64,000 nucleotides of DNA from Candidatus Omnitrophota bacterium (GTDB lineage Bacteria; Omnitrophota; Gorgyraeia; Gorgyraeales; Gorgyraeaceae): positions 112,015 to 176,014 of the forward strand of contig JBHPFI010000001.1 in NCBI GenBank assembly GCA_042572045.1, read 5' to 3'. The notes under the pieces are model-generated. The model worked only from the letters and a program-made list of their open reading frames with translations, had not been told where the DNA came from and ran no database searches. This document shows positions 9,589 through 34,075 of this stretch, piece by piece. The position numbers were made by a program, and so were the translations under genes. The stretch's first letter is position 1, and the number at the start of each line of letters is the position of its first letter.

Positions 9589-9637
9589 AAAATACCTCCT
9601 TAACCTCCTAAAACCTACACAAACTCCAACCTCTCCC

Positions 9638-10000
9638 CTACCAAACACTCCACCCAACCACCGCCCCTAAGACTATTACAAAAACCCCATACACCCGCCA
9701 AAATCCTTCAGAGCGGCCAATAAAATAGCTGAGTATGGATTTAAGCACATCGACAGGGGAAAACAGCATGAATAGGCCTTCAATCAGGGATAGAATACCC
9801 AGGACCTTTATAAGGCCCCCAAGGCGGGATACTGGATGAGCCCATAGAAATCCCACCCCAAATAATAAGGGTAAGATAAACAGGGCTTTTACAGGCTTTA
9901 CTATATTGCCATAGATGGTCTTGGATTTTTTGGGAAAGAAAAGAAATGCTATGCCTACGAGTATCCAGAATTTAGATATGAATAATAGGAAGATCTTCAT
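9638..10000 (-). CDS. 120-aa-family 4-TM membrane protein, paralogue 2
   Basis: Homologous to 8867-9238 and 41897-42262. A promoter module lies immediately upstream. Confidence 0.7.
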   Translation of the reverse strand: MKIFLLFISKFWILVGIAFLFFPKKSKTIYGNIVKPVKALFILPLLFGVGFLWAHPVSRLGGLIKVLGILSLIEGLFMLFSPVDVLKSILSYFIGRSEGFWRVYGVFVIVLGAVVGWSVW

Positions 10001-11162: not shown

Positions 11163-12293
11163 CTACCCCCATATCCCCGGAATCTTGTGATTACAGGATG
11201 GACAGCGCCCGTTATGTATATTGTTTTTCAATACCTTGAAATGTATGCGGTGAATTAGGGTTGTATTACATTTTGGGCAAAAGGTGGAGTTATGTAGATG
11301 GCCCGGGACATTGCCTATAGTGACATAATCCAGGCCTGTCTCTTTTGCAATCTTATAGGCCTTTTCAAGGGTTTCTATTGGTGTGGGCGGGAGATTGATG
11401 AGGCGGTAGGATGGTGAAAACCTTGAAAAATGAAGCGGCACCTCATGACCTAGATTGTGTTTTATCCATTTGCACATATCCTGTATCTCGTCTGGATACT
11501 CGTTTATTGTGGGGATGACGAGATTTACAATCTCAAGCCATTTCCCTTCTCTTTTTATTATTTTTAATGCTTCCAGGACCGGCTCGAGCTCTGCAGAAGA
11601 ATTGTCATACGCTCTCTTGGAGAAGCCTTTCAGGTCAATGGTGGCTGCGTCTGTGTATTTTAAAAGCTCTCTTAGGGGCTTGGGGTTTAGCGAGCCATTG
11701 GAGTGCCAGAGGATACGCAAACCTTTTGTCTTGGCAATTTTTGCTATATCGTATACGTATTCGTAAAAAGATATAGGATCATTGTAGGTAAAAGAAAGGG
11801 TCGGGATTTTTCTTTTGAGAGCCTCGTCTACTGCCTCCTGCGGTGAAAGGTCATGGTAGGTCATCTGTTCTATGGAGCGCTGCGAGAGTTGCCAATTTTG
11901 GCAGTGTTGGCAGCGATAGTTGCAGCCAGCTGTACCAAAGCAAAGTATCTGGGTGCCTGGCAGCATATGGAGCTGCGGCTCTTTTTCAATAGGGTCGACC
12001 TGGATGGATGAAGGCCGGGAATGGACAATATTGTAAAGGGTGCCATTTGAGTTTTCTTTGTTGCGGCAAAAGCCTCTTTGCCCCTCTTTTATGATGCAGC
12101 GGCGGAAGCAGATTTCGCACTGGAGGGTACTGTCTTCGAGGCACTTATAAAACATTGCCTCTCGCTTCATCACGTTAGAGATCTTTGCCCACACTCTTTT
12201 TGCGAATATATTGGATGTGAAAACAAGAAATAGACATAGGGTGATTCTTTTTAAAAATGCCTTGCGGGAGATTTTTTGGTTAAGAAAAGTCAT
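11163..12293 (-). CDS. AmmeMemoRadiSam-type radical SAM enzyme (PFL-activase-like) with an N-terminal hydrophobic, Tat-like extension
   Basis: CEICFRRCIIKEGQRGFCRNKEN...GTAGCNYRCQHCQNW (CX3CX2C). C-terminal CPKC..CPSC. N-terminus contains ISRKAFLKRITLCLFLVF. Confidence 0.7.
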   Translation of the reverse strand: MTFLNQKISRKAFLKRITLCLFLVFTSNIFAKRVWAKISNVMKREAMFYKCLEDSTLQCEICFRRCIIKEGQRGFCRNKENSNGTLYNIVHSRPSSIQVDPIEKEPQLHMLPGTQILCFGTAGCNYRCQHCQNWQLSQRSIEQMTYHDLSPQEAVDEALKRKIPTLSFTYNDPISFYEYVYDIAKIAKTKGLRILWHSNGSLNPKPLRELLKYTDAATIDLKGFSKRAYDNSSAELEPVLEALKIIKREGKWLEIVNLVIPTINEYPDEIQDMCKWIKHNLGHEVPLHFSRFSPSYRLINLPPTPIETLEKAYKIAKETGLDYVTIGNVPGHLHNSTFCPKCNTTLIHRIHFKVLKNNIHNGRCPSCNHKIPGIWG

Positions 12294-12356: not shown

Positions 12357-12385
12357 ATAATACTACTTTGGGCTCATTGCGTCAA
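12357..12385 (-). promoter_or_regulatory. Promoter module copy: TTGACG-17 nt-TATTAT
   Basis: Shares the spacer CAATGAGCCCAAAGTAG with the other copies. Lies ~65 nt upstream of the radical SAM gene ATG (12293). Confidence 0.55.
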
Positions 12386-12523
12386 GGTAAGGTGTTTTTG
12401 TGTTAAATGTGTGTAAGTAAAGGGGGAAATAATAGGTAAGCTATTCGTATCTTAATGCTGTCAATGCTATATTGACTTTTTACCAGGATTTACGTTATAA
12501 TAGTTCTTAAATAAAGGGGATGC

Positions 12524-12865
12524 ATGCTAAAAAGATATCAGGTGCTTTTAAATGACTGGATGGTACAACGCTTAAAAGAAGCTAGCGAGAGATACGATAT
12601 AAGTCAATCCGAAGTAATACGAATTTTACTATGCTTGCAGGCCATAAGGCTCGTATCTCAACTTTACCCCAAGCAATACAAAGACCCCGGTCTTGAAAAA
12701 GTTGTTCTAAATACCGCAACAAAAGTAAATAAAAAACAAGCTATAAGTTTAGAAGGATTTCATCGTCTTATATCGAAGATATATTACGAGGCACAAAAGG
12801 CAACAGAAGTTCGGGAAAAGCAAGAAAGCAAAATAAAAAATAACCGATCGATCATTCTCCGTTAA
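12524..12865 (+). CDS. Ribbon-helix-helix (CopG/Arc-like) protein
   Basis: N-terminus YQVLLNDWMVQRLKEASERYDISQSEVIRILL fits a beta-strand/helix/helix pattern. AGGGGA Shine-Dalgarno sequence upstream. Confidence 0.5.
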   Translation: MLKRYQVLLNDWMVQRLKEASERYDISQSEVIRILLCLQAIRLVSQLYPKQYKDPGLEKVVLNTATKVNKKQAISLEGFHRLISKIYYEAQKATEVREKQESKIKNNRSIILR

Positions 12866-12970
12866 AACCAAAACCCCCTAAAACCTACACAAATCCCAAC
12901 CTCTCCCTGCGGCGAATGTATATATATTATCTCTTAAATGTGTGTAAGTAGAGAGGAAATCAAAGGTAAG

Positions 12971-13050
12971 CTATTCGTATCTTAACGCCTCTATCGGATT
13001 AAGCTCGGACGCCTTTTTGGCAGGCCACAGGCCAAAAAACATACCTATCT
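12971..13050 (-). pseudogene. Orphan 3' fragment of a MacB/FtsX-type permease gene
   Basis: Encodes GMFFGLWPAKKASELNPIEALRYE* with an in-frame TAG two codons upstream. 40 nt (13008-13047) are identical to macB 24918-24957. Confidence 0.8.
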
Positions 13051-13084
13051 ATTCCCTGATTAACACTACATCCAGGACATGCTT

Positions 13085-15007
13085 TTATAACTGCAGATAG
13101 TCTTCAAGCGGCACGGTCTTCTGCGTTGGAGCATTCTTTTCTTTGTCCGTGTCAATAAACTGCATGCACCATATTTCAAAAGTCAACAGACAAAAGATAC
13201 GATACCCATGATGCTTCAGCTCGATTATTTCACGGGGTTTGATTTTCTGGCGAGGGAATTCATTGAAAATATGCTCAAGTGATCTATTATTGAAAAGACC
13301 TCGTCTCTTTAGACGACTAAGAAGTCTCTCCAGCACAATCGGCCGTTTTGTCAGGAATAAATGAAAAGGCACATCACAGCTTTGTTGGGCTGAATATACG
13401 TATTGTTCCGGCAGATAACGGAGCATCGCCATTTTATGGAACCTGCGTCTATGTCCGGTATTGGAAAGTTTCTGAAAGGTAGTCCCGTCATTAAGCCACT
13501 CCTTGGGCAGTGAGTTTATAAAGGTGATCAGCTTATTATTCAAATACGGCGAGTAATAGTTCATCCCGAATCCCTCTATCGGTTTTTGCGTCGGAGGAAG
13601 CATATACTGATACACTCCGTACAGCATTTTCGTTTCAATAAGGGCATCGAAAAAATTATCCTTGGTAAATGGCAAGTCTATCATACATTTGTGAAGCGAG
13701 ATCTCTTTAAAAGTCTCGGCATCAAGGATCTTTCTCACGGTCTCTATATTATAATGGCGGTACGAGCAAAGCCTGCCAAAAAAATCATCGTATATATTTT
13801 TTTCAGCAAAAAGAGAAAACACATGGTCACTTTCCCAGAAACGCTCCCAGTCATTTACCGAAAGTATTATTTTGTTCAATAGCCTGGCACCCTTACGTAA
13901 TATATACGGAAGACGCCTGAAATACCTGTGCCACTCGGCCACAGGATAATATTCTCCCCATAATGTATCTCCTGCGTCACCGGAGATCATGCTATCCACG
14001 TGTTTACGTGCCTCGAGGATGCACATAAATATAGGAAGCGCTCCCCCAGAAACAGGCTCCTCGACTATATTTATAAAATAAGGCACACAGTCTATAGCAT
14101 CCGGACCTATGACCACAGGATGATGGACCCCTCCGAACTTTTCGGTAATATAGCGTGCCTTCGGCGTCTCGTCAAAAGCGAAGTTCTCATAGGAAGCTGT
14201 AAAGGCATGAACAGGCTTACCAAAAAGCTTTGACGTCTGGATAAATGTAAAGCTAGTGTCGTGGCCGCCGCTTAGAAAACAACCAAGTTCTCCAGGCTTT
14301 ACACAGTTAAGAAAACTTCCGATACTTTTGCTGTAAACACTCTCGTATTCGTCAAGTTTAGCGTTAAGATCCGTGAACGGCCGCCTGTCAAAGATATATT
14401 CAGTTTTCCAGTGATCTGAAACAGTGTATGTTTTATCGTGAACATGGATAAATTGAGTAGGCAGAAGTTTTTTAACCCCCTCTAATTGCGTTTTTTCAGT
14501 ATATGAGAACCCCGTTCGCAAGAATGAAGGAAGCGCCTGTTTATCAAAAGGGGGTGTGTAAGGCAGCAGGTCGAGCAGCAGCTTAAGTGAGCTTGCGAAA
14601 AATAAAGCATTATCATTAGCACAATAATACAGTTGAGTGGCCTGGTGACGGCTGTTAAAAATGAACACTTCGCCTGATGTCCTGTCGTGTATCACGATTA
14701 TAAAAAAACCGTCGAGAAGGGAACAGAACCCCTTCCCTTCTTTAACAAATAGCTGTGCAACTAATTCTTCGAGATTATTTCGACTTGACTCAAAATAGGC
14801 ACCATCTGCCTTTATATCTAATATATCGCCTAATATTATCACTGAATGATTATCGGTAATTCTTGCAGGTCGCGACGAACGAACGGCAACACAAGATTGG
14901 CAATATTCGGCAGTAAAAGGAATCTGCTGGATCGGCTTAGATTCTTTGCCGTCAAGTAAGACCCGTCCAGCGATCGTATATTTATTTTTTAATTCCGGAA
15001 GATTCAC
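13085..15007 (-). CDS. Asparagine synthetase-family adenylating enzyme lacking the N-terminal catalytic Cys
   Basis: GTG start. N-terminus MNLPELKNKY has no Cys2. PP-loop variant CFLSGGHDTSFTF. 640 aa. Confidence 0.7.
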   Translation of the reverse strand: MNLPELKNKYTIAGRVLLDGKESKPIQQIPFTAEYCQSCVAVRSSRPARITDNHSVIILGDILDIKADGAYFESSRNNLEELVAQLFVKEGKGFCSLLDGFFIIVIHDRTSGEVFIFNSRHQATQLYYCANDNALFFASSLKLLLDLLPYTPPFDKQALPSFLRTGFSYTEKTQLEGVKKLLPTQFIHVHDKTYTVSDHWKTEYIFDRRPFTDLNAKLDEYESVYSKSIGSFLNCVKPGELGCFLSGGHDTSFTFIQTSKLFGKPVHAFTASYENFAFDETPKARYITEKFGGVHHPVVIGPDAIDCVPYFINIVEEPVSGGALPIFMCILEARKHVDSMISGDAGDTLWGEYYPVAEWHRYFRRLPYILRKGARLLNKIILSVNDWERFWESDHVFSLFAEKNIYDDFFGRLCSYRHYNIETVRKILDAETFKEISLHKCMIDLPFTKDNFFDALIETKMLYGVYQYMLPPTQKPIEGFGMNYYSPYLNNKLITFINSLPKEWLNDGTTFQKLSNTGHRRRFHKMAMLRYLPEQYVYSAQQSCDVPFHLFLTKRPIVLERLLSRLKRRGLFNNRSLEHIFNEFPRQKIKPREIIELKHHGYRIFCLLTFEIWCMQFIDTDKEKNAPTQKTVPLEDYLQL

Positions 15008-15980
15008 GTGTATGGCTTTTTTCTATATCGAATCTCTGTAATATATCTCTGTCGAGCTCTAAGCTTCTAACGCGACTTCTTATCTCGATCAGCAATATAT
15101 GCAGACTAGCTAGTATGGAACCAATTAGTCCACAGAACAGGGAGACTGCTGCCATAAAAAGACCGATATAAAATATTTTATCCAGCAAAACACTATGAAC
15201 GCTGTTCGCTAAAAGGAGCGATTTGCTTGCCACTGCCAAGACAGATACGCTGAATAACGCTATAGCCAGCCATATAAAAAAAGCTAACGGGTAATACTCG
15301 AGGAAGACCGCTGCTAAAATTTTAACCTGTTCAAGCACATACTCAAAATATGATGTAAAAAGGTGGGATTCCCTGGTCTTGGCGTTTACGCCGATAGGTT
15401 CCCATGCAACCTTTAATCCTATCCGTCTTGACTGGCATAACATCTCAAGGGTATAACTAAAATCACATCTGACAACGATCCTTCTCGCAGCATGACGGCT
15501 AATGGCACGGAATCCGGTCGTCGCATCTGGGATATTTAAGTCAGAGAAACGAGAAGCGATCCTGCTGCCCACTTTATGCAGCATTTTTTTAAGAAGGCTG
15601 TTTTCCTTATTAGCGTCGTTATCGCGGCACCCCAGCACTATATCAGCACGCTTATTACAGATCGGCCTTATGAGTTTTGGTATATCGCTTCCTTTATACT
15701 GGTTATCTCCATCAAGGTTGACAATGATATCCGCTCCTAACGCGAGGGCTACCTCTAATCCATTACAAAACGTCTTTGATAGCCCCTGTTTAACGTTATT
15801 CTTAACGATATAATCGACACCCATGGACTTTGCGACTTCAACTGTCCTGTCAGTGCTACCGTCATCTATGACCAGGGTATATATTTCATCTATTCCCTCT
15901 ATAGGTCTCGGGATTCCGGTAATAACGGAAGGCAATGTCGCCTCTTCGTTCAAACAAGGGATCTGAATAAAAAGCTTCAT
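14982..15980 (-). CDS. Family 2 glycosyltransferase with C-terminal TM helices (polyprenyl-phosphate sugar synthase type, ArnC/DPM1/GtrB-like)
   Basis: MKLFIQIPCLNEE..VIDDGSTDRT..NLDGDNQY, followed by two or three C-terminal TM helices. An alternative TTG start at 16016 would overlap the asnB stop. Confidence 0.75.
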   Translation of the reverse strand: MKLFIQIPCLNEEATLPSVITGIPRPIEGIDEIYTLVIDDGSTDRTVEVAKSMGVDYIVKNNVKQGLSKTFCNGLEVALALGADIIVNLDGDNQYKGSDIPKLIRPICNKRADIVLGCRDNDANKENSLLKKMLHKVGSRIASRFSDLNIPDATTGFRAISRHAARRIVVRCDFSYTLEMLCQSRRIGLKVAWEPIGVNAKTRESHLFTSYFEYVLEQVKILAAVFLEYYPLAFFIWLAIALFSVSVLAVASKSLLLANSVHSVLLDKIFYIGLFMAAVSLFCGLIGSILASLHILLIEIRSRVRSLELDRDILQRFDIEKSHTRESSGIKK

Positions 15981-16012
15981 ACCTGATATTTTAAAACTTT
16001 TCTCTTTTAAGT

Positions 16013-17887
16013 TCAAGGGCTAATATGTTTTAATAATACCAACAACCCCCATATTTTAAAGGAATTGTTCTCTTTGCGCTGTCTGTGCCTGAGCAATAAA
16101 TTTATACACTCATCTCTATTAATAAAGTTGTCAAAAAGCCTGTGATGCGCATTGAATATATCATGGCAATAATCAAACAGATCCGACTTTAACCATGCAG
16201 CTATAGGCATATGCCATCCCTGCTTCTTTTGCCGTAGTATCCTTTGGTCCAGTTTGTCTGTCATTATCTTTTTCAACAGATACTTGGATTCTGTTATTTT
16301 AAAACGCGCACTAAAAGGTAGCTTTATCAAATATTCAGCCAGAGGAAGGTAGAGAAACGGCACCCGCACTTCGAGGGAATTTTTCATACTGTAAACGTCC
16401 GTCCTTAATAAATTATTGAAAGTGAGCCATGAGGTCAGGTCGGAGTTGGCTAGATATTCGAGAGAGGCATCCTTTTTATCTGGACCTCCGTAATATGTGT
16501 CACTGAATGAGTTTAAATCTATTTTATCCAGCAGATCACTCTTTAGTATTGCCTTTTTATCCTCGAACGGAAAGATAACACGCCAGTATGAATGCGCCAT
16601 TTTACTATCTCTGAATTTCGCCCCCTGTATAAAACGCAGGAACTTATAATCGAAGTTAAGCTTTTTATCGGATGAGGGGAAAAAGGAAATCATTTTTTCA
16701 AGAGAACCGAGACCGGCTATTGGGAGGTGCTTGAAGAAACGATAAAGAAAATCCGCTCTGTAAGTAGGGTATCCTAAAAACAGCTCATCCCCCCCTTCTC
16801 CGGAAAGACAGACCTTAACATATTTACTGGCTAACCGACTTACTAAATAGGTTGAGACACACGCCTGATCCGCGATAACAGAATCGCAAATTTCAGGAAG
16901 ATCTTCCAGGAACCGGATCACATCACCTTCGCGGCATACGATCTCAGCATGATCTGTTTTATACTTTTCAGCAACAAGTCTCGCATATGGCCTCTCATCG
17001 TAGGATTTATTATCATATCCTACCGAAAACGTCTTAAGACGACGATGGTTATTCTGGCATAAAAAATGTACTATCGAACTGGAATCAATACCTCCGCTTA
17101 AAAAACATCCGACCTCGACATCGGACTGGATATGTCTTTTTATCGAATCCTTCATGAGCTCTTCTACATCATGGATTATCTCTCTGGCAGAAAACTTTTC
17201 TTTACCTGTATATATATTCGGCCTCCAAAAAGACCTGACAACGGGCCTCAAATGGTTATTGACCTGCAAAAAATGCCCCGGCAAAAGTTCAAACAGATCC
17301 TTGTAGATCGTTCTTTTACCTGGGATATAATTGTAGTGAAAATACAGATTCAACCCTTCAGGATCGATATCTTCTGTTACCGCACCGCTCTTGATCAGGG
17401 ATCTGGTTTCAGAAGAAAACATAAACCTACAGCTGTTTCGGTAAAAATAAAGTGGTTTTATTCCAAAGTGGTCCCTAGCTAGAGTAAGGACATTCCTTTT
17501 TACATCAAATATACACATGGCGAACATTCCATGAAGAAGATTAAAACACTCAACACCTTTCTCTTCATACAAATGGACGATAACTTCCCCGTCCCCTTTT
17601 GTTCGAAATAAGTGGCCCTTACTTTCTAATTCAGAGCGTAACTCTTTGAAATTATAAATCATCCCGTTATAGACAAGGACCAGGCTTTTATCCTCATTGA
17701 ACAACGGTTGGTCGCTGTTAATAATGTCGACAATGCTCAAACGACTGGCAGCTAGACCGACATGATCGCTCTCATAAATACCCTGGCTGTCCGGCCCCCG
17801 ATGCAATAACAATGAGTGCATACGTGAGAGGTATCCGGCCTCTTCTTTATATCTTTCGGGGGAATAAATTCCGCAAATACCACACAT
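16013..17887 (-). CDS. asnB: Asparagine synthase (glutamine-hydrolysing), canonical
   Basis: MCGICGIY Ntn-Cys start. PP-loop CFLSGGIDSSSIV. 624 aa. Confidence 0.85.
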   Translation of the reverse strand: MCGICGIYSPERYKEEAGYLSRMHSLLLHRGPDSQGIYESDHVGLAASRLSIVDIINSDQPLFNEDKSLVLVYNGMIYNFKELRSELESKGHLFRTKGDGEVIVHLYEEKGVECFNLLHGMFAMCIFDVKRNVLTLARDHFGIKPLYFYRNSCRFMFSSETRSLIKSGAVTEDIDPEGLNLYFHYNYIPGKRTIYKDLFELLPGHFLQVNNHLRPVVRSFWRPNIYTGKEKFSAREIIHDVEELMKDSIKRHIQSDVEVGCFLSGGIDSSSIVHFLCQNNHRRLKTFSVGYDNKSYDERPYARLVAEKYKTDHAEIVCREGDVIRFLEDLPEICDSVIADQACVSTYLVSRLASKYVKVCLSGEGGDELFLGYPTYRADFLYRFFKHLPIAGLGSLEKMISFFPSSDKKLNFDYKFLRFIQGAKFRDSKMAHSYWRVIFPFEDKKAILKSDLLDKIDLNSFSDTYYGGPDKKDASLEYLANSDLTSWLTFNNLLRTDVYSMKNSLEVRVPFLYLPLAEYLIKLPFSARFKITESKYLLKKIMTDKLDQRILRQKKQGWHMPIAAWLKSDLFDYCHDIFNAHHRLFDNFINRDECINLLLRHRQRKENNSFKIWGLLVLLKHISP

Positions 17888-17892
17888 GTTCT

Positions 17893-19314
17893 TTATCCTA
17901 TGATCTTACTCAGAGAAGATATCCCATATCTTAAAATACACATCCGCTCTCTAAAACTTCCCGCCAGCTTGAGTCTTTCCAGAACATATCCCGGGCGCAC
18001 ATAAAAACCTCTTAATGCCTTTTTTCTTAATTCGATAAGCCTTTCTCTGGTCAGAGATAATGTAGGGCACTGAGACCCGGTATAGGAGTCTCTTGAAACC
18101 CCAGAAGCAGAGTAGTTATCGATCAACCCATTCTCTTTTATTATTTGAAAAAGCTCGGTCCCCTCAAACGCTGACGGTAAAAAGAAATCGAGATAATCAG
18201 GCGCTATCTTTCTTGAAAAAGAGATGGTTTCTCCTATAGTATCCTCTGTATCCCACGGGAAACCTATTATGAAATAGGCATACGTCTGTATACCATTCTT
18301 CCTGCAGAGACTAAAGGCTTCTTCGATATCACTTACCGTGATATCCTTTTTTATTTTATCCAGAATATACTGAGAACTGCTTTCAACCCCCAGAGAAAGA
18401 GCAAAACACCCGCTTTCTTTCATCATATTAAGCATATGATCGTCCAGCGTATCAACCCTGCTGTTAGCGAACCATCTGATCTTTAAATTCTTATCAATAA
18501 TGCCTCTACATAGATCGATGACCCATTTCCTGTCAAGTGAGAACAAATCAGACTTAAAATGGAAGTCAAAGATATTATGCTCATGATTGCAAAGTTCTAT
18601 CTCTTCAATAATCTTTTCAACTGAGCGCCTTCTATGGTCCTTACCGTAAGCAAAAGAAGTAAGGCAAAAAATACACTGATACGGGCACCCCCTGCTTACC
18701 TCTATCAGTCCAAGTGGCCGTCCATTATCGGGCCTTTTATATAATTCATTCTTTATTAAGCCTCTGTTGACTATTGGGATAGCGTCTAAATCCTTGAGAA
18801 ACGGTCTTTTATCGGTCTTGGAGATCGACCCCTTATAGCGATAAAAGACCCCCCTGACCCTGTTTTTATCCTCATATTCCAGAAATTCATATAATGTAAA
18901 ATCCGTCTCTCCGTAAAATACAGCATCTATGGAACTTTCATTTTCCATAACTTTTCCGGCTATATTCTCGATCATGCCGCAGCGTAATATAACGATCAGG
19001 TCCTTTTTTATTTTTTTCGCTATCTGAGCGCACGCGATATCATCCTTTAATGTGGGGATCGTCCCGTTTATTACCAGGATATCCGGCAATATCTCTTTCA
19101 GATCGAGCTCATAATCCCAGACTGACTTTTTTTCGATCGGATAATCTCTGATAATAACTTCGTACCCATGACCTTCCAACACCGCCGCCATAGTCAATAA
19201 TTCGTGCGGAGGGCGGGTTACTGAGATCAAAAAATTTCCAACGTCACTTTGACAGCGATCATCACGAATGAAAAGGCCTGTAGGAGGATTTACCATTAAA
19301 ACTTTTTTTTCCAT
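17893..19314 (-). CDS. B12-binding domain radical SAM enzyme (paralogue C)
   Basis: NPPTGLFIRDDRCQ N-terminus. SRGCPYQCIFC (CX3CX2C). GVESSSQ. Confidence 0.8.
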   Translation of the reverse strand: MEKKVLMVNPPTGLFIRDDRCQSDVGNFLISVTRPPHELLTMAAVLEGHGYEVIIRDYPIEKKSVWDYELDLKEILPDILVINGTIPTLKDDIACAQIAKKIKKDLIVILRCGMIENIAGKVMENESSIDAVFYGETDFTLYEFLEYEDKNRVRGVFYRYKGSISKTDKRPFLKDLDAIPIVNRGLIKNELYKRPDNGRPLGLIEVSRGCPYQCIFCLTSFAYGKDHRRRSVEKIIEEIELCNHEHNIFDFHFKSDLFSLDRKWVIDLCRGIIDKNLKIRWFANSRVDTLDDHMLNMMKESGCFALSLGVESSSQYILDKIKKDITVSDIEEAFSLCRKNGIQTYAYFIIGFPWDTEDTIGETISFSRKIAPDYLDFFLPSAFEGTELFQIIKENGLIDNYSASGVSRDSYTGSQCPTLSLTRERLIELRKKALRGFYVRPGYVLERLKLAGSFRERMCILRYGISSLSKIIG

Positions 19315-19317
19315 AAC

Positions 19318-20745
19318 TTAGACTACCCTCTTTACCAATCTACATCCCCATTTTATGTAGTTAAAAAGGACCCTGGGGTTTTTAGCGCCCATCATTTTTT
19401 TAACTATATATTTAGGCCGAAAATAAAAAGAGGCCAACATATCCTTACGCAGGTCTGTGATTTCATCAGGGGACAGCGAAAAAGTACGCAGTATCGGATT
19501 AATATGGGAAAACCTTTCATAATCCCTTGATATGAAAAGATCCTCTTTACCAGCCATTTCATATAACTCGCTGCCTATTAAGGGATAAGGCACATTCACT
19601 TCCATAAAGTCAGGGTCTAACTTAAGAAGAAGTTCTTTAGTCTCATTGATAGTTGTATGGTCATCCCATGGAAAACCAATGATACAGTGAAAAAATGTCC
19701 GTAAACCGCTTTCTTTTGCCAGCCTGTGCGCATCTTCAATGTCTTTAACGCATATGTTCTTTTTGATCTTTTTCAAGATAGTATCGCTGCCGCTCTCTAC
19801 GCCGAAACCTACTATATCACAACCTGCCTTCTTCATCGCTTTAAACATCTCCATGTCGGTCCTATCTACTCTGCTATTAGCGCCCCAGGAGATACTGATC
19901 TTCTCCTCACCTACTCTCTTACAAAAAGCCATCACCCATTTTTTATCAAGGGTAAAGTTGTCGGATCGAAAAAAGAAGCTGCTCACATCATATCTTACAA
20001 GGCACTCCTTGATCTCTCCGATAACATTATCGACACTTCTGGTCTGCACTTTCTTCCCTAAATATACCGGTGCTGAACAAAAGATACATTCACCAGGGCA
20101 ACCTCTTGAAAGGTAGATATAAGCTATCGGCTCCCCTGAGTCGGGCCGGACATAATCCTTTCTGTTTAAAAAATATCTCGGTGGAGAAGGATATCCGTCT
20201 ATATGAAAAGTACTTCCGACATCCAGACTCACAGGCTCGTGAATTGTCCGACCGGACAGCACATAGGCATTTTTTAGCCTGTCGACCCTGCCGAGATCCA
20301 TTAAAATATCCTGGATAATCTGCTCAAAATTCCTGACAATAAAGTATATTTTATTACGGCTGTTTAATTCAACGACAGCAAGTTCGCCTCTAAGATATGG
20401 GAAATCCAGGAACGGCGCTTTAATGATAAAAAAGGGATCTTTTACCCTGTCGTTTAAAGACTTGATAAAATTCATATCGTTTTTAAAGGTCCCCTGGGTA
20501 GTCTCTATATAATAACAATCCGCGTTGAAACTGGCTGCGTCAGAAAGGACATCTTCCAGATCGAATCCCGGCACGCTATAATCCTTTAAAAAGACTTCAT
20601 GACCGTATTTTTGGAAGAGTCCGGCCAGATAAAGGATCTGGACAGGTTCTCGGATATTCTCTGCAACGCGGGAATTTACATCTATCTGGCACCGCTCATC
20701 GCGTATAAAAAGTCCTGTAGGAGGGTTGCAGAAAAATATTTTCAT
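19318..20745 (-). CDS. B12-binding domain radical SAM enzyme (paralogue B)
   Basis: NPPTGLFIRDERCQ and SRGCPGECIFC. I chose the ATG at 20745 because it forms an ATGA overlap with the upstream stop. The track start is 20763. Confidence 0.8.
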   Translation of the reverse strand: MKIFFCNPPTGLFIRDERCQIDVNSRVAENIREPVQILYLAGLFQKYGHEVFLKDYSVPGFDLEDVLSDAASFNADCYYIETTQGTFKNDMNFIKSLNDRVKDPFFIIKAPFLDFPYLRGELAVVELNSRNKIYFIVRNFEQIIQDILMDLGRVDRLKNAYVLSGRTIHEPVSLDVGSTFHIDGYPSPPRYFLNRKDYVRPDSGEPIAYIYLSRGCPGECIFCSAPVYLGKKVQTRSVDNVIGEIKECLVRYDVSSFFFRSDNFTLDKKWVMAFCKRVGEEKISISWGANSRVDRTDMEMFKAMKKAGCDIVGFGVESGSDTILKKIKKNICVKDIEDAHRLAKESGLRTFFHCIIGFPWDDHTTINETKELLLKLDPDFMEVNVPYPLIGSELYEMAGKEDLFISRDYERFSHINPILRTFSLSPDEITDLRKDMLASFYFRPKYIVKKMMGAKNPRVLFNYIKWGCRLVKRVV

Positions 20746-22145
20746 GTAAAAAGTATGTCCCAAAAGGCCTTAAAATATTTCCTTAAAGCTGGTATTGACA
20801 TATTATCTCCCAATTTTTTAAAAATTATCCTTCTGCGAACATAAAATCTAAGGTACATTGACTTAATATATCTTATAATCTCCTCTGGGCTAAAAGGCGT
20901 GTCCATTAAAGGAGGCGCTGAGACATTTTTTTTGTCCAGGACATATTGCCTCCAATAATCTTCACTCCCATTTTTAGTTCTGTGCTCTTCATAGAATTTT
21001 GTCCCCGGGAAAAGGGTAAAACGGGTCACCTGTATTTCGTCAAGCGGCATTGAAAGCGCAAAGCGTTTTGTTTTCTTCAGACTAGAGATAGTCTCTCCGG
21101 GACATCCCAGCATAAAAAACCCAAATACGGTTATCCCATTCTCGTGGGTCATCCTGACGGTATCAGCTATGCGTGACAACTTTTCATTTTTTCCCAGACG
21201 ATCCAGGATCCTTTGATCGCCGCTTTCAATACCATACATTATGCGATACAGGCCGGCTGCCTTCATCTCTCCCAGCAACTCCCTGTCGATCAGATCTGCC
21301 CTGGTCCTTATAGTCCAGATGATCTTTATATCGCGCTTAATGATCTCACGGCATATTTCTGATGCGCGCTCCCTATTAATACTAAAAGTCTGATCGTAAA
21401 AATCTATCTCTCTTATGTCGTATTTGTTGTAACATTCCTCTATTTCATCTACAATATTCCTGGGACTCCGCATATAGCATTTCGATAAAGTCGATACACA
21501 ATATTTACACTTAAAAGGACAGCCCGTCCCGGTTAGCATTGCTGTAAAATTCTTTTTTTTGCAAATGAAGTTGCCATACAGATCATTCTTCAATAAGTCC
21601 CTGGATGGAAAAGGTATCGAGTCCGGATCTTTTTGTATTTTTTTTGTGATCTTATTTATGAAGGTCTCCCCGTTTTTCCTATAACATAACCCCTCTATTC
21701 GATGATACTCATCGATCTTACCAAAAGAGGACAAAAAAGCGCCCAGGGAATCTTCAGCACCACCTATAAGCCCAATGTCTATTTCAGGATGAGCCATTGT
21801 TTCCAGAGGATAGAGGCTGAGATGGAATCCGCCGACAATAACAGGAATGTCTACAGCCCTTTTTATCTCTCTTATCCAATCAAGTACAGGATGAAAGAGA
21901 TACGTCGTTATGGTAAAACCTAAAAGATCCGGACCGTATCTTTTAATGTAACCGACCAGCTCATCAAATGAAAAGTCTTCGACCTGCAGATCGATCAACC
22001 GGACTTCGTGGCCACACTTCCGTATTATTGAAGCTACATAACATAGATTTAGCGGAGGTATCGCCCCCATGTTCTTTTCCTGCGCTTCCAGGCAGTTCCA
22101 GTGGACTTCCGGTAAAAAATTATTATATAGGAGAAGTACTTTCAT
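20742..22145 (-). CDS. B12-binding domain radical SAM enzyme (paralogue A, more divergent)
   Basis: N-terminal Rossmann-like B12 domain (VIVGGFH). TGTGCPFKCKYC. ATGA overlap with the upstream gene. Confidence 0.8.
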   Translation of the reverse strand: MKVLLLYNNFLPEVHWNCLEAQEKNMGAIPPLNLCYVASIIRKCGHEVRLIDLQVEDFSFDELVGYIKRYGPDLLGFTITTYLFHPVLDWIREIKRAVDIPVIVGGFHLSLYPLETMAHPEIDIGLIGGAEDSLGAFLSSFGKIDEYHRIEGLCYRKNGETFINKITKKIQKDPDSIPFPSRDLLKNDLYGNFICKKKNFTAMLTGTGCPFKCKYCVSTLSKCYMRSPRNIVDEIEECYNKYDIREIDFYDQTFSINRERASEICREIIKRDIKIIWTIRTRADLIDRELLGEMKAAGLYRIMYGIESGDQRILDRLGKNEKLSRIADTVRMTHENGITVFGFFMLGCPGETISSLKKTKRFALSMPLDEIQVTRFTLFPGTKFYEEHRTKNGSEDYWRQYVLDKKNVSAPPLMDTPFSPEEIIRYIKSMYLRFYVRRRIIFKKLGDNMSIPALRKYFKAFWDILFT

Positions 22146-24826
22146 TTTACCCAGAAATATATGTTATAGAACGACTTTGTCCTTTGATCGTATGTGATAA
22201 CGTCTACTCTCTTTGGCAATGGACCTTTCAGAGGTAACTTAATATTTATTTCCTCCTCATCTCCTGAAGCTAGGCTCACGACGCCCGTTGCCCGCGGCGC
22301 AAGGATTTCTTCTATTTCCCTATTATTGGCTCTGTCAAATAATATCTTATCAATTTGTACAAACCCTTCGCCAGAATCATCTTGCCTTACTGCAAATATA
22401 TTTATAGAGCCCCCTTCCTCTGCCAAGTCAAGCCAAGTTCCGTAGATAGCTGCATAATCTTTAAAATTATGGCTTATACTTTCTTTTATCTTTTTCATCT
22501 TCTTGTCTCCCACATATAAATCTATGTTATCTGTTATTTCTGTGACTAAGCAATATACTTTATAATTATCCGGTTTTATATCCAAATCGCCTCTTAATAC
22601 ACTTGACCTTTTAGTATTTATTAAATCCATCCTCATATCACTACCAGCGTAAAAGCTCGTATCACTACCAGCGTAAAAGCTAACAGGTGCCCACTTATGT
22701 CCTCCAATAGATGTCTCATATAAAGATCTGGCATCTATAGTATAATCTGAGATAAAAATGTTATATGTATACGCATTTTTAGCCAAAGCATTATTTCTTA
22801 TTATGAAGCTAAAAATAAGATTTTCGTTTATCTTTTCCAAAGGGAATTTCCCTAACGTAGCATAACTGCCATCACTCCCTATATCAATAACGCTATATGC
22901 GTCTCCTGAAAAATTGAAACTTCTCCCTGATGTTCCGTTTTTCTCCAAAACTCCTTCTGCCATAATTCTGTCAAAAACTCCATCTTTATCCATGTCAACG
23001 AAGTCAAAGAAGACCTCCTTATCCTGTATGACATTCTTACCGGCCTTAATTGTCACATACGGGAAAAAAACCTCTGTCATTTCAGTACGCCTGACGTTAA
23101 AAAGCGGGTCCACATCTACTGAGATTTTGAATCTTTCTAAACGCTCGCTATTCTTTACTAAATACGGATAACATATAGTGGCTAGCTTACCGTTATCATA
23201 AAGGCGTATTACCTTAGTGGAACTCGTTATCCGCTCATAAAATGAGGGGGGATTTTCTGCCTTTGCACGATACGAAATTGTAAAAAGATCTTTAAGTTCT
23301 CCCGTTGTGATGTAATTTATTTGTTCGTTTTCTAAAAATTCAAACGGGGTTTTACTCATTTCTAATAGTTCGCTTTTGTCTTTTTCTAAAACAAATGTTT
23401 CGGCGTCCTTCACATGCCCATAAAACTGATCCCCTCCCCCACTCTCATATCTAAAACTCATTGTTTCACGGTAAGGCAAAAAATCATAAGCAGAATAATA
23501 AAATTCATATTTTCCATATATATCCAAAACTTGTTTTTTTATATTAAGAAAACAAAATAGTCCTAAACAAATCATTAAGCCCAGGAACAGAAACAAAGAG
23601 ACTATTTTTGAGACATTCTTTCTGGAAACATATCTAAACACAAAATAACTTCCGCATAAAATAACGATAAAACTGATCAAGAAGGGTATGCAAATATGAT
23701 ATATAATTACTTTTAACAAATTTTTGACGCTGTCCAGAACAAGATAATTATTTTTATAATACACCAAAAAATAACCCTGTACTGCGGCTATACTTGCGAG
23801 ATAGCTTAATGTGAACCTCGACGTTGTAACTCTTTTGAACAGATAAGCTAAAGCGTATCCTATGACTATACTTAACATTGGAACTGCCGGAAGAACTCCT
23901 CGAGGAGCATGATGCTGAGGAGAGATTATTGTAAGAAAAAAATATGACGATATATAAGAAATTAAAAGTGAATTTATGAATCTTTTCTGTTTATCAAAAA
24001 AATACAAAAAAATAAAGATCGCTAGTATAGGTATTATGAGCTGTAATAATATACTATAATAATCAAAATGCTCCAGCACCAAGTGCCCATAATGTCTTGC
24101 TAATTCTGACTCTATGATATTATCCCCTCTATCTGTATAAAACCACTTTCCTAATAATCGGTATCTCCATATAAATACTGGGGACAACAATATAAAAAGT
24201 GCTATTAAAAACAATAAAGTATGCTTGGCTTTACCCAGGTAGACTTTTTTGTCTTTTTTCTTATGTGCCCATTGCAGAAGTAAAAATATAAAAAGCCCAC
24301 CCACGCAGGCCAAATAAAAAGTCTTCATATTAAAAGCAAGAAACACTGATATACATCCAAACAAAACCCACTTTTTAGATTGAACTATATTTGCTTTGTA
24401 AAGACAGTACAAAGATAAAGTGATAAGTAAAGTAGGTATTGTATATCCCTCTATAACATGCGCCCATCCTACATGTAAAGGAAATATTGCCAATATAAGT
24501 GCAGATAAGGATGCTGCGATTACTCCATATGCCTCTTTTGATAATTTATAAACTATTACTATGGTCAAAGTACTAAAAATAGCGTTGGCCAGTTTAAGGA
24601 TAATAAAATTCTGCCCAAAAACTCTCATAAAACCTGCATAAAGTATGCTTAATCCCGGAGAAAAGGGCAATAAATCCTTCCAGCCATGCTCTAAAAGTCG
24701 AATGGCATGAAAGGCAATTTCACAATATCTCAGTGGAGTAGTAAGCGATAAATAAATTCTAATGATCGCCGCTGAGGCAATGATAGCAAAACCTATAAAA
24801 AGGTAACTTCTTCTCTGTATCATCAA
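22142..24826 (-). CDS. GT-C fold membrane glycosyltransferase (ArnT/PMT, GT39-like) with a ~450-aa periplasmic C-terminal domain
   Basis: About 12-14 TM helices in the first ~430 aa with ArnT-like topology, then a soluble domain. The first-loop acidic motif is degenerate (YCEIAF). Confidence 0.6.
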   Translation of the reverse strand: MMIQRRSYLFIGFAIIASAAIIRIYLSLTTPLRYCEIAFHAIRLLEHGWKDLLPFSPGLSILYAGFMRVFGQNFIILKLANAIFSTLTIVIVYKLSKEAYGVIAASLSALILAIFPLHVGWAHVIEGYTIPTLLITLSLYCLYKANIVQSKKWVLFGCISVFLAFNMKTFYLACVGGLFIFLLLQWAHKKKDKKVYLGKAKHTLLFLIALFILLSPVFIWRYRLLGKWFYTDRGDNIIESELARHYGHLVLEHFDYYSILLQLIIPILAIFIFLYFFDKQKRFINSLLISYISSYFFLTIISPQHHAPRGVLPAVPMLSIVIGYALAYLFKRVTTSRFTLSYLASIAAVQGYFLVYYKNNYLVLDSVKNLLKVIIYHICIPFLISFIVILCGSYFVFRYVSRKNVSKIVSLFLFLGLMICLGLFCFLNIKKQVLDIYGKYEFYYSAYDFLPYRETMSFRYESGGGDQFYGHVKDAETFVLEKDKSELLEMSKTPFEFLENEQINYITTGELKDLFTISYRAKAENPPSFYERITSSTKVIRLYDNGKLATICYPYLVKNSERLERFKISVDVDPLFNVRRTEMTEVFFPYVTIKAGKNVIQDKEVFFDFVDMDKDGVFDRIMAEGVLEKNGTSGRSFNFSGDAYSVIDIGSDGSYATLGKFPLEKINENLIFSFIIRNNALAKNAYTYNIFISDYTIDARSLYETSIGGHKWAPVSFYAGSDTSFYAGSDMRMDLINTKRSSVLRGDLDIKPDNYKVYCLVTEITDNIDLYVGDKKMKKIKESISHNFKDYAAIYGTWLDLAEEGGSINIFAVRQDDSGEGFVQIDKILFDRANNREIEEILAPRATGVVSLASGDEEEINIKLPLKGPLPKRVDVITYDQRTKSFYNIYFWVK

Positions 24827-24880
24827 GGATCTCTCTTTTTAGCCGCAATTTCCTGCAGCTTCTAATAATGGAAATGTTAT

Positions 24881-26836
24881 TTATTCGTATCTCAATGCTT
24901 CGATAGGATTCAGTCGAGACGCCTTTTTGGCAGGCCACAGGCCAAAAAACATACCTACGGCTATAGAAAAACTTGCGGCAAGTATAATATTAGATATGGT
25001 AACTTTGGTAGCCCATCCAGCCAGGGACGAAAGCGTTATAGATGTTGCTATGCCAAGCAGTATGCCCATCAACCCCCCGCTCAATGTCATAACCACTGAT
25101 TCAATAAGAAACTGTGTCATTATGTCCTTCGCCTTGCCGCCTACTGCCTTGCGCAGGCCGATCTCACGAGTGCGCTCTGTCACAGAAACAAGCATGATAT
25201 TCATGATGCCTATTCCGCCCACAAGAAGCGATATAGCAGCAATGCAGCCCAAAAGCATGCTCATGGTCTTGGTGGTGCTTGATAGCATTTCCTGGATCTC
25301 ACTCATATTATGCATATGAAAATAATCATCGGGGTTCTTGTATATGCGGTGCCGCTTTATAATAAAGTCCCTTATATCATTCTCTGCCTCTTCCATGGAT
25401 TCGATATCGATTACCTCAGCATAAATACCGTCAAAATAATCTTTACCCAATACCCTGTACATAGCAGTAGTCACAGGGATATAGATGACATCGTCACGGT
25501 CCCGCCAGCCGCTTGCACCTTTTTCAGGCGCGATGCCAATCACCTTAAAATTAATCCGGTTTATCTTTATTGTCTCGCCGACAGGATTTATATTGCCGAA
25601 AAGTTTTTCAACCACGCTTCTCCCCAGTATCGCTACTTTAGCGCGCTGGTCCATTTCTTCAGAGGTAAACCACCTGCCTATATCAGGTATGGCTGCCCGC
25701 ATCTGGCCATAGTCATACCCGACCCCTTCTACCCTGGTACTCCAGTTCTCGCTTTTATATACGACCTGACCGCTTCCGCTGGCATATCCGCTTACTCTTT
25801 TTATCAAAGCCAGGTTTCCAATGCCTTCGGCATCTCCTGCCATAAAACGCGTCACAGATCCTGCTGCCCTGGCCGCGCCCCTGACTTTACCAGAACCTCC
25901 TTGTATAGATAAAAGATTAGAGCCGAGTGTCTTAAGTCTTTGTTCCATTGATGCCTTAGCTCCCTGTCCAAGCGCAAGCATTGCTATGACTGCTGCCACG
26001 CCAAACAAGATACCGAGCATTGAAAGAAACGACCGGACCTTATTTGAAAAAATAGCCCTGAATGACTGACGGACGTGTTCCTTGAACTCAACCTTACCAA
26101 AATAAGAATGGCCCTGGCCTGTCAGCTCTTTAATAGATACCTTGATGTCTTGGCGGCTTTTATTTTTGTCTTTGGCCTCATCAGAGACTATTTTACCATC
26201 GCGCATCGTTATGATCCTTTTTGCGTGCTGGGCGATTTCTTGTTCGTGCGTGACAAGGATTATAGTCTTACCCTGCGAGTTTAAGCCCTTTAGGATCTTT
26301 ATTATCTCTTCTTCGCTCTTTGTATCCAGGTTTCCTGTGGGTTCGTCTGCAAAAATGATCAGTGGGTCATTTACCAGCGCTCTCGCAATAGCCACTCTCT
26401 GCTGCTCGCCCCCTGATAATTCACTTGGCATATGTTTTGAACGTTCAGCAAGGCCTACTGACTCTAAATTCTTCCGAGCGTTTTCTATCCCCTTGTTTTT
26501 GCCGGAATAGATAAGGGGCAACTCCACGTTCTCAAGGGCGCTGGTCCTGCGAAGCAAATGAAACTGCTGGAATACAAAACCCACGAGTCGATTTCTAAGT
26601 TGTGCGAGTTCACCATCTGAGAGTTGTGAAATCTCAGTACCCAAAATATTATACGACCCTTTGTCTGGACGGTCCAAAAAACCCAGCATGTGAAGAAGAG
26701 TGGATTTACCTGAGCCAGAAGGTCCCATGATGGCCACAAATTCACCCTGACCGATATTAAGCGAAACATCGTCTAGTGCAGCAATAGACGCATCGCCTTT
26801 GCCATACGTTTTACAAATATTTTTTAGCTCTATCAT
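24881..26836 (-). CDS. macB: MacB-type ABC transporter (fused ATPase and FtsX permease)
   Basis: GPSGSGKST and LSGGEQQRVAIARAL. C-terminal four-TM FtsX domain ending EALRYE. Confidence 0.85.
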   Translation of the reverse strand: MIELKNICKTYGKGDASIAALDDVSLNIGQGEFVAIMGPSGSGKSTLLHMLGFLDRPDKGSYNILGTEISQLSDGELAQLRNRLVGFVFQQFHLLRRTSALENVELPLIYSGKNKGIENARKNLESVGLAERSKHMPSELSGGEQQRVAIARALVNDPLIIFADEPTGNLDTKSEEEIIKILKGLNSQGKTIILVTHEQEIAQHAKRIITMRDGKIVSDEAKDKNKSRQDIKVSIKELTGQGHSYFGKVEFKEHVRQSFRAIFSNKVRSFLSMLGILFGVAAVIAMLALGQGAKASMEQRLKTLGSNLLSIQGGSGKVRGAARAAGSVTRFMAGDAEGIGNLALIKRVSGYASGSGQVVYKSENWSTRVEGVGYDYGQMRAAIPDIGRWFTSEEMDQRAKVAILGRSVVEKLFGNINPVGETIKINRINFKVIGIAPEKGASGWRDRDDVIYIPVTTAMYRVLGKDYFDGIYAEVIDIESMEEAENDIRDFIIKRHRIYKNPDDYFHMHNMSEIQEMLSSTTKTMSMLLGCIAAISLLVGGIGIMNIMLVSVTERTREIGLRKAVGGKAKDIMTQFLIESVVMTLSGGLMGILLGIATSITLSSLAGWATKVTISNIILAASFSIAVGMFFGLWPAKKASRLNPIEALRYE

Positions 26837-27792
26837 TTTCTTTTCCTGCTGGGCATGAATGGATTGGTGCCTGAGGATTTTCTCTTAGGTAGGTAGAGAT
26901 CGTACTGTATGATGACTTTATCTTCCTCGCTTAAACCTGAGATGACTTCAGCATTAAGATCATTATTTAATCCTACCTTGATATCGCGCTCGATTATCTT
27001 GCTTCGTCCTTCCTGGACCAGAACAAACTCTCTTTCTCCATCGTAATGAATAGCGCTTGAGGGGATTGTTATAACACCTTTGGCTTTCTTTTCAATGACT
27101 TCCACTGTAACGCTCATGCCTGAACGCAGTATATCAGGCATTTCTTTAGGTAAGATATCAACATCATATATTGTCACATTATTTACTATCTCAGACTCGT
27201 ATGCTACATGATCTACCTCGCCATTAATCTTAACATCAGGATACGCATCAAGAGTTATGAGTGCCTCTTGCCCTATCCTCACCCTGCCTATATCAGTCTC
27301 GTCAAACTGACCGCTTATTACAAGCCTGTCAGATAGGACTAATACTGCGTCAGAAGATGAGACGGTCTGGCCTGGCTCGACTGCGCGGACTATTACTTCG
27401 CCATCAATAGGAGAAATAATAGGCGTTTTCTTGTAAGTCTCTTCCCAGTATTCCAGGGCCTCTTCGCCCTGTGAATGGGCAGCATCCACAAGCGCAGCCC
27501 TTTCAGTAGAACTCATCCACGCCAAAATATCACCCTTATTGACCTGGTTACCCTCTCTAATTAAGATCTCTTCAATCCGCCCGCCTATAGAAGGTTTTAT
27601 TTCAAGTCGGTTCTGAGGCTCTACGATTCCTGTTGTAGCAACTTTTATAGCAACATCACTTATTATAGGTTTTACGATTTTCTTTGCGCTTCCTTTTGGC
27701 TGGCCATTGTCTTTCTTTGAATTCATGACTAAAGCTACAGCAACGCACAATATAACTACTGTGACAATAAGCTTCCCTTTATTTTTAATCAT
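26833..27792 (-). CDS. macA: Periplasmic adaptor (HlyD/MacA family)
   Basis: TM anchor, lipoyl-like and beta-barrel motifs. ATGA overlap with macB. Confidence 0.75.
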   Translation of the reverse strand: MIKNKGKLIVTVVILCVAVALVMNSKKDNGQPKGSAKKIVKPIISDVAIKVATTGIVEPQNRLEIKPSIGGRIEEILIREGNQVNKGDILAWMSSTERAALVDAAHSQGEEALEYWEETYKKTPIISPIDGEVIVRAVEPGQTVSSSDAVLVLSDRLVISGQFDETDIGRVRIGQEALITLDAYPDVKINGEVDHVAYESEIVNNVTIYDVDILPKEMPDILRSGMSVTVEVIEKKAKGVITIPSSAIHYDGEREFVLVQEGRSKIIERDIKVGLNNDLNAEVISGLSEEDKVIIQYDLYLPKRKSSGTNPFMPSRKRK

Positions 27793-29246: not shown

Positions 29247-29453
29247 CTATTTTACTCCCCACTTCCTGAGAATCTTTTCTGGGATACACCAGTTAGTGAA
29301 TGCTGATTGAATAAGATTGATGCCTACTAGTGCAGCCCAGATAAGCCACCATTTACTTACCGTGATAGCCAGAATAACGCTTATAAGAACAAAACTCCCT
29401 GCGATAATCCTGATATATTTTTCCATTGCAAGCTGCATAATAATATCCTCCAT
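29247..29453 (-). CDS. DUF2892 (YgaP-like) small membrane protein
   Basis: YIRIIAGSFVLISVILAI...LVGINLIQSAFTNWCIPEKIL. Start is ambiguous (29453, 29438 or 29426). Confidence 0.6.
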   Translation of the reverse strand: MEDIIMQLAMEKYIRIIAGSFVLISVILAITVSKWWLIWAALVGINLIQSAFTNWCIPEKILRKWGVK

Positions 29454-29456
29454 ATT

Positions 29457-34041: not shown

Positions 34042-34075
34042 ATATTATACGATACTTCATATCTTTTAAAAAAGC

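Follow-up and report, generated by a model that had tools for sequence, protein, structure and literature searches.

An 11.9-kb biosynthetic operon in an Omnitrophota genome appears to be a secondary insertion at the 3′ end of macB, a gene of the efflux-pump operon tolC-macA-macB. It encodes, in order, a GT-C glycosyltransferase, three radical SAM proteins, an AsnB amidotransferase, a GT2 glycosyltransferase and an AsnB-like amidotransferase, and is found in a 64,000-nucleotide stretch of contig JBHPFI010000001.1 (Candidatus Omnitrophota; hereafter the window). On either side it is bordered by a copy of the macB 3′ end, and the two copies combine a perfect 40-nt core with tails that differ in sequence while both running in frame to a stop codon. 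We favor, at a probability of roughly 0.4, a secondary insertion by in-register recombination at macB, with the host homologous recombination machinery as the most likely agent. Omnitrophota is a phylum of very small, uncultured cells, and to our knowledge its mobile-element biology and horizontal transfer are almost undescribed. The locus is a single instance of a well-known type of scar in this poorly studied phylum. Its value is that of an internally controlled example, in which the incoming and the displaced gene end would both be preserved, and in which a whole envelope-modification operon would have been grafted onto an efflux-pump operon with no mobility gene detected.

The repeated macB end

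Features at the two junctions are as follows.

24881-26836, minus strand: intact macB, 651 aa (Pfam ABC ATPase, MacB_PCD and FtsX)
24918-24957, minus strand: core copy A, perfect 40-nt repeat within macB, encoding (V)GMFFGLWPAKKAS
24881-24917, minus strand: tail A, the present macB end (..SRLNPIEALRYE, then stop), which probably arrived with the insert
24827-24880, minus strand: 54-nt spacer from the macB stop to the start of the GT-C gene, without a terminator-like or promoter-like site
13048-13084, minus strand: 37-nt right-junction spacer, non-macB, without similarity to macB or to the start of a glutamine amidotransferase (GATase) gene
13008-13047, minus strand: core copy B, 40/40 identical to copy A
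12971-13007, minus strand: tail B, the orphan and probably displaced native macB end (..SELNPIEALRYE, then stop), whose peptide is the consensus of the closest orthologues

An earlier reading of this DNA, made from the sequence only, had reported that 13008-13047 and 24918-24957 are identical at 40 of 40 positions. This proved correct, and the repeat anatomy is real and non-random: allowing up to three mismatches, the core matches the window at these two positions only, and none occurred by chance in 100 shuffles. The minus-strand frame is the same in both copies through to the stop, reading GMFFGLWPAKKASRLNPIEALRYE in intact macB and GMFFGLWPAKKASELNPIEALRYE in the orphan, so that the intact gene ends in ..KKASRLNPIEALRYE and the orphan in ..KKASELNPIEALRYE. 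From core to stop the tail measures 37 nt in each copy, not 38 as first counted; the 11 differences counted between the tails stand. Alignment of the tails also bore out how these had been described, with seven synonymous third positions, one non-synonymous codon (three nucleotides in a single R/E codon) and a TAA versus TAG stop. The contrast between core (0/40) and tail (11/38, using the earlier count) is significant by Fisher test (p = 1.5e-4). The orphan core starts 37 nt past the stop of the last cluster gene (13085). On its 5′ side macB similarity is gone, and an in-frame TAG stands two codons ahead of GGT-ATG, again as reported.

Origin of the two macB ends and of the cluster

We compared the last 77 nt of macB in copies A and B and in five orthologues. 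Orthologues from different genomes differ at 2-9 of 40 core positions and at 7-12 of 37 tail positions (2/40 and 7/37, for example, between L002 and L003), which shows a core that, judged from these alignments, evolves more slowly than the tail. Copies A and B differ at 0/40 and 11/37, and their tail distance is thus at the top of the orthologue range; tail A is itself separated from the orthologue tails by 7-12 of 37 positions. All 23 residues of the orphan peptide agree with the consensus of its closest orthologues. In a set of 120 homologues, 39 end in ASELNPIEALRYE, more than in any other sequence, and a minority of 9 end in ASRLNPIEALRYE.

Tails that differ almost only at synonymous positions, and by as much as orthologues of different genera do, indicate that both evolved as working macB ends in separate lineages. 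A drifting pseudogene with 11 changes would be expected to lose the consensus peptide, which argues that both tails were functional; the match between the orphan and the orthologue consensus suggests further that it served as a working macB end until recently. The comparison shows two tails that are, by alignment, xenologous and apparently joined by one recombination event. Because the tails are as distant as orthologues yet the core is identical, the cluster was evidently inserted in register at the macB 3′ end, displacing the native end. Both elements of this account had been put forward in the sequence-only reading, namely that the cluster was inserted secondarily downstream of macB and that the displaced original end sits at the far junction. 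They are now well supported at the level of sequence comparison, by the tails, by the agreement of the orphan with the consensus of its nearest orthologues, and by the absence of the cluster beside macB in relatives. A codon-usage likelihood comparison of tail A with tail B was uninformative. Two relatives whose macB has an Arg tail, L177 and L179, were considered as donors and rejected: their Arg codon is AGG, not CGA, and they are without the cluster.

A search of 5.8 billion proteins returned one MacB identical to that of the window (P0001, Candidatus Omnitrophota), and the next relative is 84% identical. We examined the macB context in six independent relatives (L001, L002, L003-5, L177/178 and L179; 72-84% identity), a coarse comparison because these stand at genus or family distance rather than within the species. 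The tolC-macA-macB trio is kept in all relatives examined. Downstream of macB the six relatives have six different contents, several of which include other glycosyltransferase or radical SAM genes. Within 10 kb downstream of macB, none of the six has this cluster, with or without a repeat, a second macB or macAB operon, or an orphan tail. On the upstream side, L003 shares an epimerase gene, RlmL and a tRNA-U5 methyltransferase gene with the window at 80-84% identity, and L177 and L179 have upstream genes in common. We also observed that about 9 kb lie upstream of the efflux trio in the window (29247-38000) where L003 has a Dus gene only (L003:6714-7688). The extra genes encode YgaP-like, DUF1302, LolA-like, MMPL transporter, Ysc84, PilZ, GDSL lipase with TPR, and PhoU-like proteins. 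Together with the downstream variation, this difference suggests that both flanks of tolC-macA-macB are variable.

The cluster itself has relatives at a greater distance. In the same protein collection, the closest homologue of its last gene is 60% identical; homologues occur in Omnitrophota, with more distant ones in records labelled Woesearchaeota, Bdellovibrionia and Halobacteriovorax. Those in L006-L011 lie in a recurring cluster, never adjacent to macB, that comprises PMT_2, AsnB and AsnB-like genes and three radical SAM genes that match those of the window and in most cases encode a B12-binding domain. A class-I GATase gene directly follows the AsnB-like gene in three homologous clusters and is missing in the window. 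We compared the right-junction spacer (13048-13084) with the corresponding GATase junctions (L006:9127-9140, L008:11938-11956 and L010:10744-10747) and found no GATase remnant in the 37 nt, nor one anywhere in the window. The right end of the insert thus seems truncated, and the last enzyme encoded there may lack a partner amidotransferase. The recurring cluster, which is patchily distributed in Omnitrophota, often has in addition two SPASM radical SAM genes and a gene for a double radical SAM protein about 1150 aa long.

Beyond the orphan end lies a third partial copy of the macB terminus that the sequence-only reading had not described, and which forms a repeat pair around a small gene.

12927-12988, minus strand: repeat R1, the final 18 nt of the orphan macB end followed by about 45 nt past the stop
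12396-12458, minus strand: repeat R2, the third partial copy, made up of GCATTAAGATACGAATAG and post-stop sequence, with about 86% identity to R1
12524-12865, plus strand: 113-aa gene located between R1 and R2, of a family known from Omnitrophota only

R2 thus comprises the last 18 nt of macB and about 45 nt past the stop. The pair aligns over 63 nt at about 86% identity, 530 nt apart, with uninterrupted identity over stretches of 22 and 17 nt that are each unique in the window to these two places. Any macB similarity of the third copy 5′ of its last 18 nt was rejected as not significant (231 of 2000 shuffles scored equally). It looks as though the orphan carries the native sequence downstream of macB, itself duplicated around a second small unit.

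These observations bear on an alternative in which the orphan is what is left of a second macB, its 5′ part deleted and its core later homogenized by gene conversion from the intact gene. Tail B forms a valid macB end free of degenerate changes, and a conversion tract reaching the edge of homology could give a perfect block. Such a history is nonetheless the least probable of those weighed here. Besides the lack of a second macB or macAB within 10 kb of the first in relatives, the window has one macB only; a 77-nt piece with a tail about 30% diverged would be a poor conversion partner; and the recurrence, 530 nt on, of the sequence that follows the orphan fits native DNA from downstream of macB.

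Route of the insertion

We scanned 59 open reading frames of the window with Pfam and found no integrase, recombinase, excisionase or transposase domain (12 matched nothing, and 4 more were listed but unscanned). All seven reading frames of the insert have biosynthetic domains. The earlier remark that the cluster contains no integrase or recombinase thus extends to the scanned genes of the whole window. No tRNA gene or Rfam family was found in the window. The compositional check proposed with that reading detected nothing foreign, as GC, GC at third codon positions (GC3), codon usage and tetranucleotide profile all match the flanks. Six of the seven cluster genes have GC of 0.40-0.42 and GC3 of 0.42-0.44 (0.345 and 0.31 in the GT-C gene); the codon-usage distance of the cluster is among the lowest in the window, and its tetranucleotide correlation is unremarkable.

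Several classes of element were tried and rejected. A transposon or insertion sequence would not account for the locus: no transposase domain was detected, a test of the inner 150 nt at each end for terminal inverted repeats gave a score lower than the mean of shuffles, and a 77-nt repeat with one diverged half is not a target-site duplication. For an integron cassette, the repeats folded as single strands with z = -0.5 to -0.9, unlike attC, and there is no integrase. For an integrative mobile element exploiting Xer (IMEX), the sole perfect dif-like match is at 8621-8641, outside the feature, and neither core has any of 13 pattern matches. The locus does share with integron cassettes and IMEX a recombinase-free, repeat-flanked design with no promoter-like site of its own just upstream, and it would, like them, be expressed from an upstream promoter; as in IMEX, a candidate dif is near, about 4 kb from the macB locus. 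It differs from them in having no attC-like folding and no IntI, and in a core that, judged by eye, is unlike the candidate dif (8614-8641).

A decayed site-specific integrative element, resembling a cis-mobilizable element (CIME), is a somewhat less probable explanation and deserves fuller consideration. An attP site with a mimic of the macB 3′ end would have been joined by a tyrosine recombinase to a 40-bp attB in macB, leaving the core with element tail A as attL and the core with native tail B as attR. The integrase module would since have disappeared, or the enzyme would act in trans, encoded elsewhere in the genome. The locus indeed has direct repeats at both ends and a macB kept intact, while no integrase of its own is present among the scanned genes. 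Tyrosine-integrase elements typically have direct repeats of 8-60 bp that take in the 3′ end of a housekeeping protein gene, and a CIME is by definition without an integrase (PMC5704250). Retained repeats without mobility genes are what a CIME would leave; a non-site-specific insertion gives the same picture.

The anatomy of the locus also matches that of a known system that we measured as a control. In E. coli K-12 the cryptic prophage e14 is flanked by icd and an icdC pseudogene (PMC13626634). Its 165-nt duplicates have 13 mismatches, a first identical run of 11 nt and an abrupt start of homology. At macB, as in e14, an insertion in the 3′ end of a protein gene appears to have supplied a mostly synonymous substitute end and orphaned the original at the far junction. 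By comparison with e14, the macB duplicate is shorter (77 nt), its perfect block longer (40 nt) and its tail more diverged (30% versus 8%). Moreover, e14 has intE, xisE and phage genes and undergoes SOS-induced excision, and none of these genes was detected at the macB locus.

At the center of the core is an inverted repeat with 8-bp arms and 9 nt between them (TTTTTGGC-N9-GCCAAAAA), an arrangement resembling paired core-binding sites; this repeat is not significant (z = -0.9), and it is present in every orthologue largely because the FFG...AKK coding sequence dictates it. The integrase could have gone in the same deletion as the GATase gene that is missing at the right end; the cluster ends only 54 and 37 nt of non-coding sequence from the repeats, too little to have accommodated a mobility module, and any loss must have been scarless. 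Against a decayed element we also count the lack of any recombinase, excisionase or transfer gene detected in 64 kb and the indistinct composition. In addition, the exact 28-nt core had no match in viral_contigs, genome_contigs or metagenome_contigs, and no clear orphan was found, among the matches listed, for 135 other MacB/FtsX-type tails in 2.1 Mb of loci. Three of these tails have only 151-196 codons of open frame upstream. The base rate so obtained refers mostly to distant MacB genes, again among the matches listed, with motifs common across phyla.

The nested R1/R2 pair adds a further consideration. Accretion is described for CIMEs and elements related to ICESt1 and ICESt3, and integrative mobilizable elements are found at the 3′ ends of guaA, trmE and rpl/rpm genes (PMC5704250). 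As in such accretion, neighboring nested repeats at macB suggest more than one event at one locus (PMC5704250). Accretion, however, places the same att core at every junction, whereas the second pair at macB consists of the last 18 nt of the gene and post-stop sequence. The locus is also unlike CIMEs in its native composition, and it has no known cognate integrase or functional relative. The claim of site-specific integration with att sites, made in the sequence-only reading, is therefore not established, given the lack of a recombinase, the host-like composition and a nested pair on a different segment.

We return to homologous recombination. The crossover could have been made by a site-specific recombinase or by host homologous recombination, and we slightly prefer the latter. 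A nested pair on a different segment of the macB end favors homology-driven recombination slightly over a decayed integrative element, because any homology would serve RecA and would not serve a site-specific enzyme. The host-like composition would fit a related donor. The apparently truncated right end and the variable sequence downstream of macB in all relatives are further points for this route. RecA-dependent recombination needs about 25-30 nt of perfect identity, and the 40-nt block suffices.

In the sequence of events we envisage, donor DNA carried a macB 3′-end homologue (core plus tail A) beside the cluster, and one reciprocal Campbell-type crossover with the chromosome took place inside the identical 40-nt block, probably by way of a circular intermediate. 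A reciprocal crossover between two molecules carrying the block would account for identical cores with synonymous-saturated tails. macB would have gained a foreign but functional tail, while the native tail and native downstream sequence would have been pushed 11.9 kb away as a 23-codon orphan. Host homologous recombination acting on DNA of another Omnitrophota lineage would make this an integrase-free acquisition. The promoterless operon would then be read through from the tolC-macA-macB promoter, and the perfect 40-nt direct repeats could delete it precisely. Two predictions follow: read-through expression of the operon, and restoration of the native macB end upon its precise loss.

Replacement glycosylation islands offer a parallel in which recombination is homologous. 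When such islands are exchanged, the bordering genes show mostly synonymous substitution peaks (PMC4033161). The macB locus resembles them in having envelope cargo beside a conserved gene, variable content there, a synonymous peak at the island edge and no mobility genes (PMC4033161). Those islands are exchanged by double crossover, which leaves no orphan; at macB the native end is kept and a border copy remains at 12971-13047, so the locus is not a clean double-crossover replacement. The retained native end points either to a single crossover or to insertion accompanied by duplication of the target.

A number of points weigh against this account. The closest MacB in databases, other than the identical one, is 84% identical, too distant for its locus to show an empty site, and the donor and the circular form are hypothetical. 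Homologous clusters never adjoin macB where seen, and no donor-like arrangement is documented. A 77-nt homology at 14% divergence makes a poor substrate for recombination, and a circular or staggered intermediate formed by accident would be a further rare event. The account also requires donor and recipient cores that agree at all 40 nt, next to tails saturated at synonymous sites. The slow evolution of the core explains this in part and, as read from the orthologues, makes the requirement not prohibitive. Finally, by analogy with the e14 control, the footprint would equally be that of a site-specific element.

Because the source is a metagenome-assembled genome, the join itself may be questioned. 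A separate circular or alternative-strain molecule sharing the 40-nt core could have been threaded into one assembly path, in which case the integrated form may be absent or restricted to part of the population. The 40-nt exact repeat is shorter than some assembly k-mers and longer than others, and no independent contig of the same species confirms the join. We consider such an artifact improbable: both junctions need reads that run from unique sequence into the core (spacer to core B, and macB through core A into tail A), and the composition matches the host. Even then, the cluster molecule would still carry a mimic of the macB end, leaving the case for recombination there unchanged.

More speculatively, the macB end with its partly palindromic 40-nt core might be a dedicated docking site for integrase-less, promoterless Omnitrophota cassettes, an idea to which we give little credence. 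The recombinase would be encoded elsewhere, and the cargo would comprise envelope operons and small units such as the 113-aa gene. If true, each cassette would bring an in-frame pump C terminus, and the system would be an operon-scale, gene-end-targeting analogue of the integron.

Genes of the locus and neighboring sequence

All genes of the region, from the tolC-like to the AsnB-like gene, are on the minus strand. Those not listed above are given here in the direction of transcription, followed by the first gene past the scar region.

27785-29056, minus strand: TolC-like outer membrane factor, first gene of the efflux trio (Pfam OEP, E = 4e-61)
26833-27792, minus strand: MacA-like membrane fusion protein (Pfam HlyD_D23, HlyD_3; about 73% identical in relatives)
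22142-24826, minus strand: GT-C glycosyltransferase (PMT_2 / ArnT-like), 894 aa, first gene of the insert (Pfam PMT_2, E = 1.7e-12)
20742-22145, 19318-20763 and 17893-19314, minus strand: three radical SAM genes (Pfam Radical_SAM in all three)
16013-17887, minus strand: asparagine synthase (glutamine-hydrolysing) family amidotransferase, AsnB (Pfam Asn_synthase, E = 5e-80)
14982-16016, minus strand: GT2 glycosyltransferase resembling polyprenyl-phosphate sugar synthases (AglJ / PpgS / ArnC-like)
13085-15007, minus strand: AsnB-like amidotransferase, last gene of the insert (profile matches)
11163-12293, minus strand: AmmeMemoRadiSam-type radical SAM gene, first past the scar region (NCBIfam TIGR04337, 336 bits against a 220-bit cutoff)

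The TolC-like gene is 71-77% identical to its counterpart in relatives L001-L005, and macB matches the NCBIfam MacB model PRK10535 with E = 2e-156, under the curated cutoff. Within the insert, AsnB passes NCBIfam asn_synth_AEB (428 bits against a 267-bit cutoff), whereas all NCBIfam matches of the GT2 protein are below their cutoffs. The best NCBIfam resemblance of the radical SAM genes is to HpnJ, below its cutoff; the first two have a B12-binding Pfam match, one of them below the gathering score, and the third has none. The GT-C gene contains a 24-nt tandem duplication (22632-22679), 96% identical and in frame, that adds 8 codons. The pairing of GT2 and GT-C enzymes suggests lipid-linked sugar transfer to a periplasmic acceptor, and a role of the cluster in envelope modification is likely by inference from its gene content. 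No terminator-like site follows macB ahead of the GT-C gene, which makes co-transcription of macB and the cluster plausible, as had been suggested for tolC-macA-macB.

The 113-aa gene between R1 and R2 has a near-consensus promoter-like site, TTGACT-18-TATAAT (12472-12501), overlapped by a palindrome, GTCAAT-N5-ATTGAC. Beyond the protein of the window its family has seven homologues, including L092:5474-5809, L093:8001-8321 and L094:8001-8336, and all those with a named source are from Omnitrophota. The N terminus MLKRYQVLLNDW is invariant across the family. The 113-aa protein matches no Pfam or NCBIfam family and has a weak PHROG "transcriptional regulator" match only (E = 0.002). Its AlphaFold model is all-helical, with a predicted local distance difference test (pLDDT) score of 85 and no PDB fold match. 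We therefore dropped a ribbon-helix-helix assignment, which neither the all-helical model nor any fold or family match supports. Gene-end repeats of the R1/R2 kind were looked for around its homologues and none was found. In L092 the homologue is again convergent, 30 nt past the 3′ end of an AcrB-type efflux-pump gene. In L093, the ribosome-binding site and start codon of the family member fall within a perfect 19-nt tandem duplication (7970-8007); in L094, the homologue is closely followed by a pair of perfect 55-nt repeats spaced 204 nt apart (8408-8666).

Farther on, the AmmeMemoRadiSam-type gene has a promoter-like site of its own at 12357-12385 (minus strand). A probable replication terminus is located at about 8.5-9 kb, where GC skew and gene orientation flip between convergent genes (8493-8866). 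The convergent gap holds the only perfect match in the window to the dif-like pattern ATAANNNNNNTTATGTNAANT. This candidate dif (8614-8641, plus strand; AGCGCCTATAA-TGTATC-TTATGTTAACT), which we take to closely resemble E. coli dif, is 4-16 kb from the macB scar. Beside it, at 8867-10000, three small genes of 120-123 aa follow one another on the minus strand; two of these have weak DUF2065 matches and are apparent tandem paralogues.

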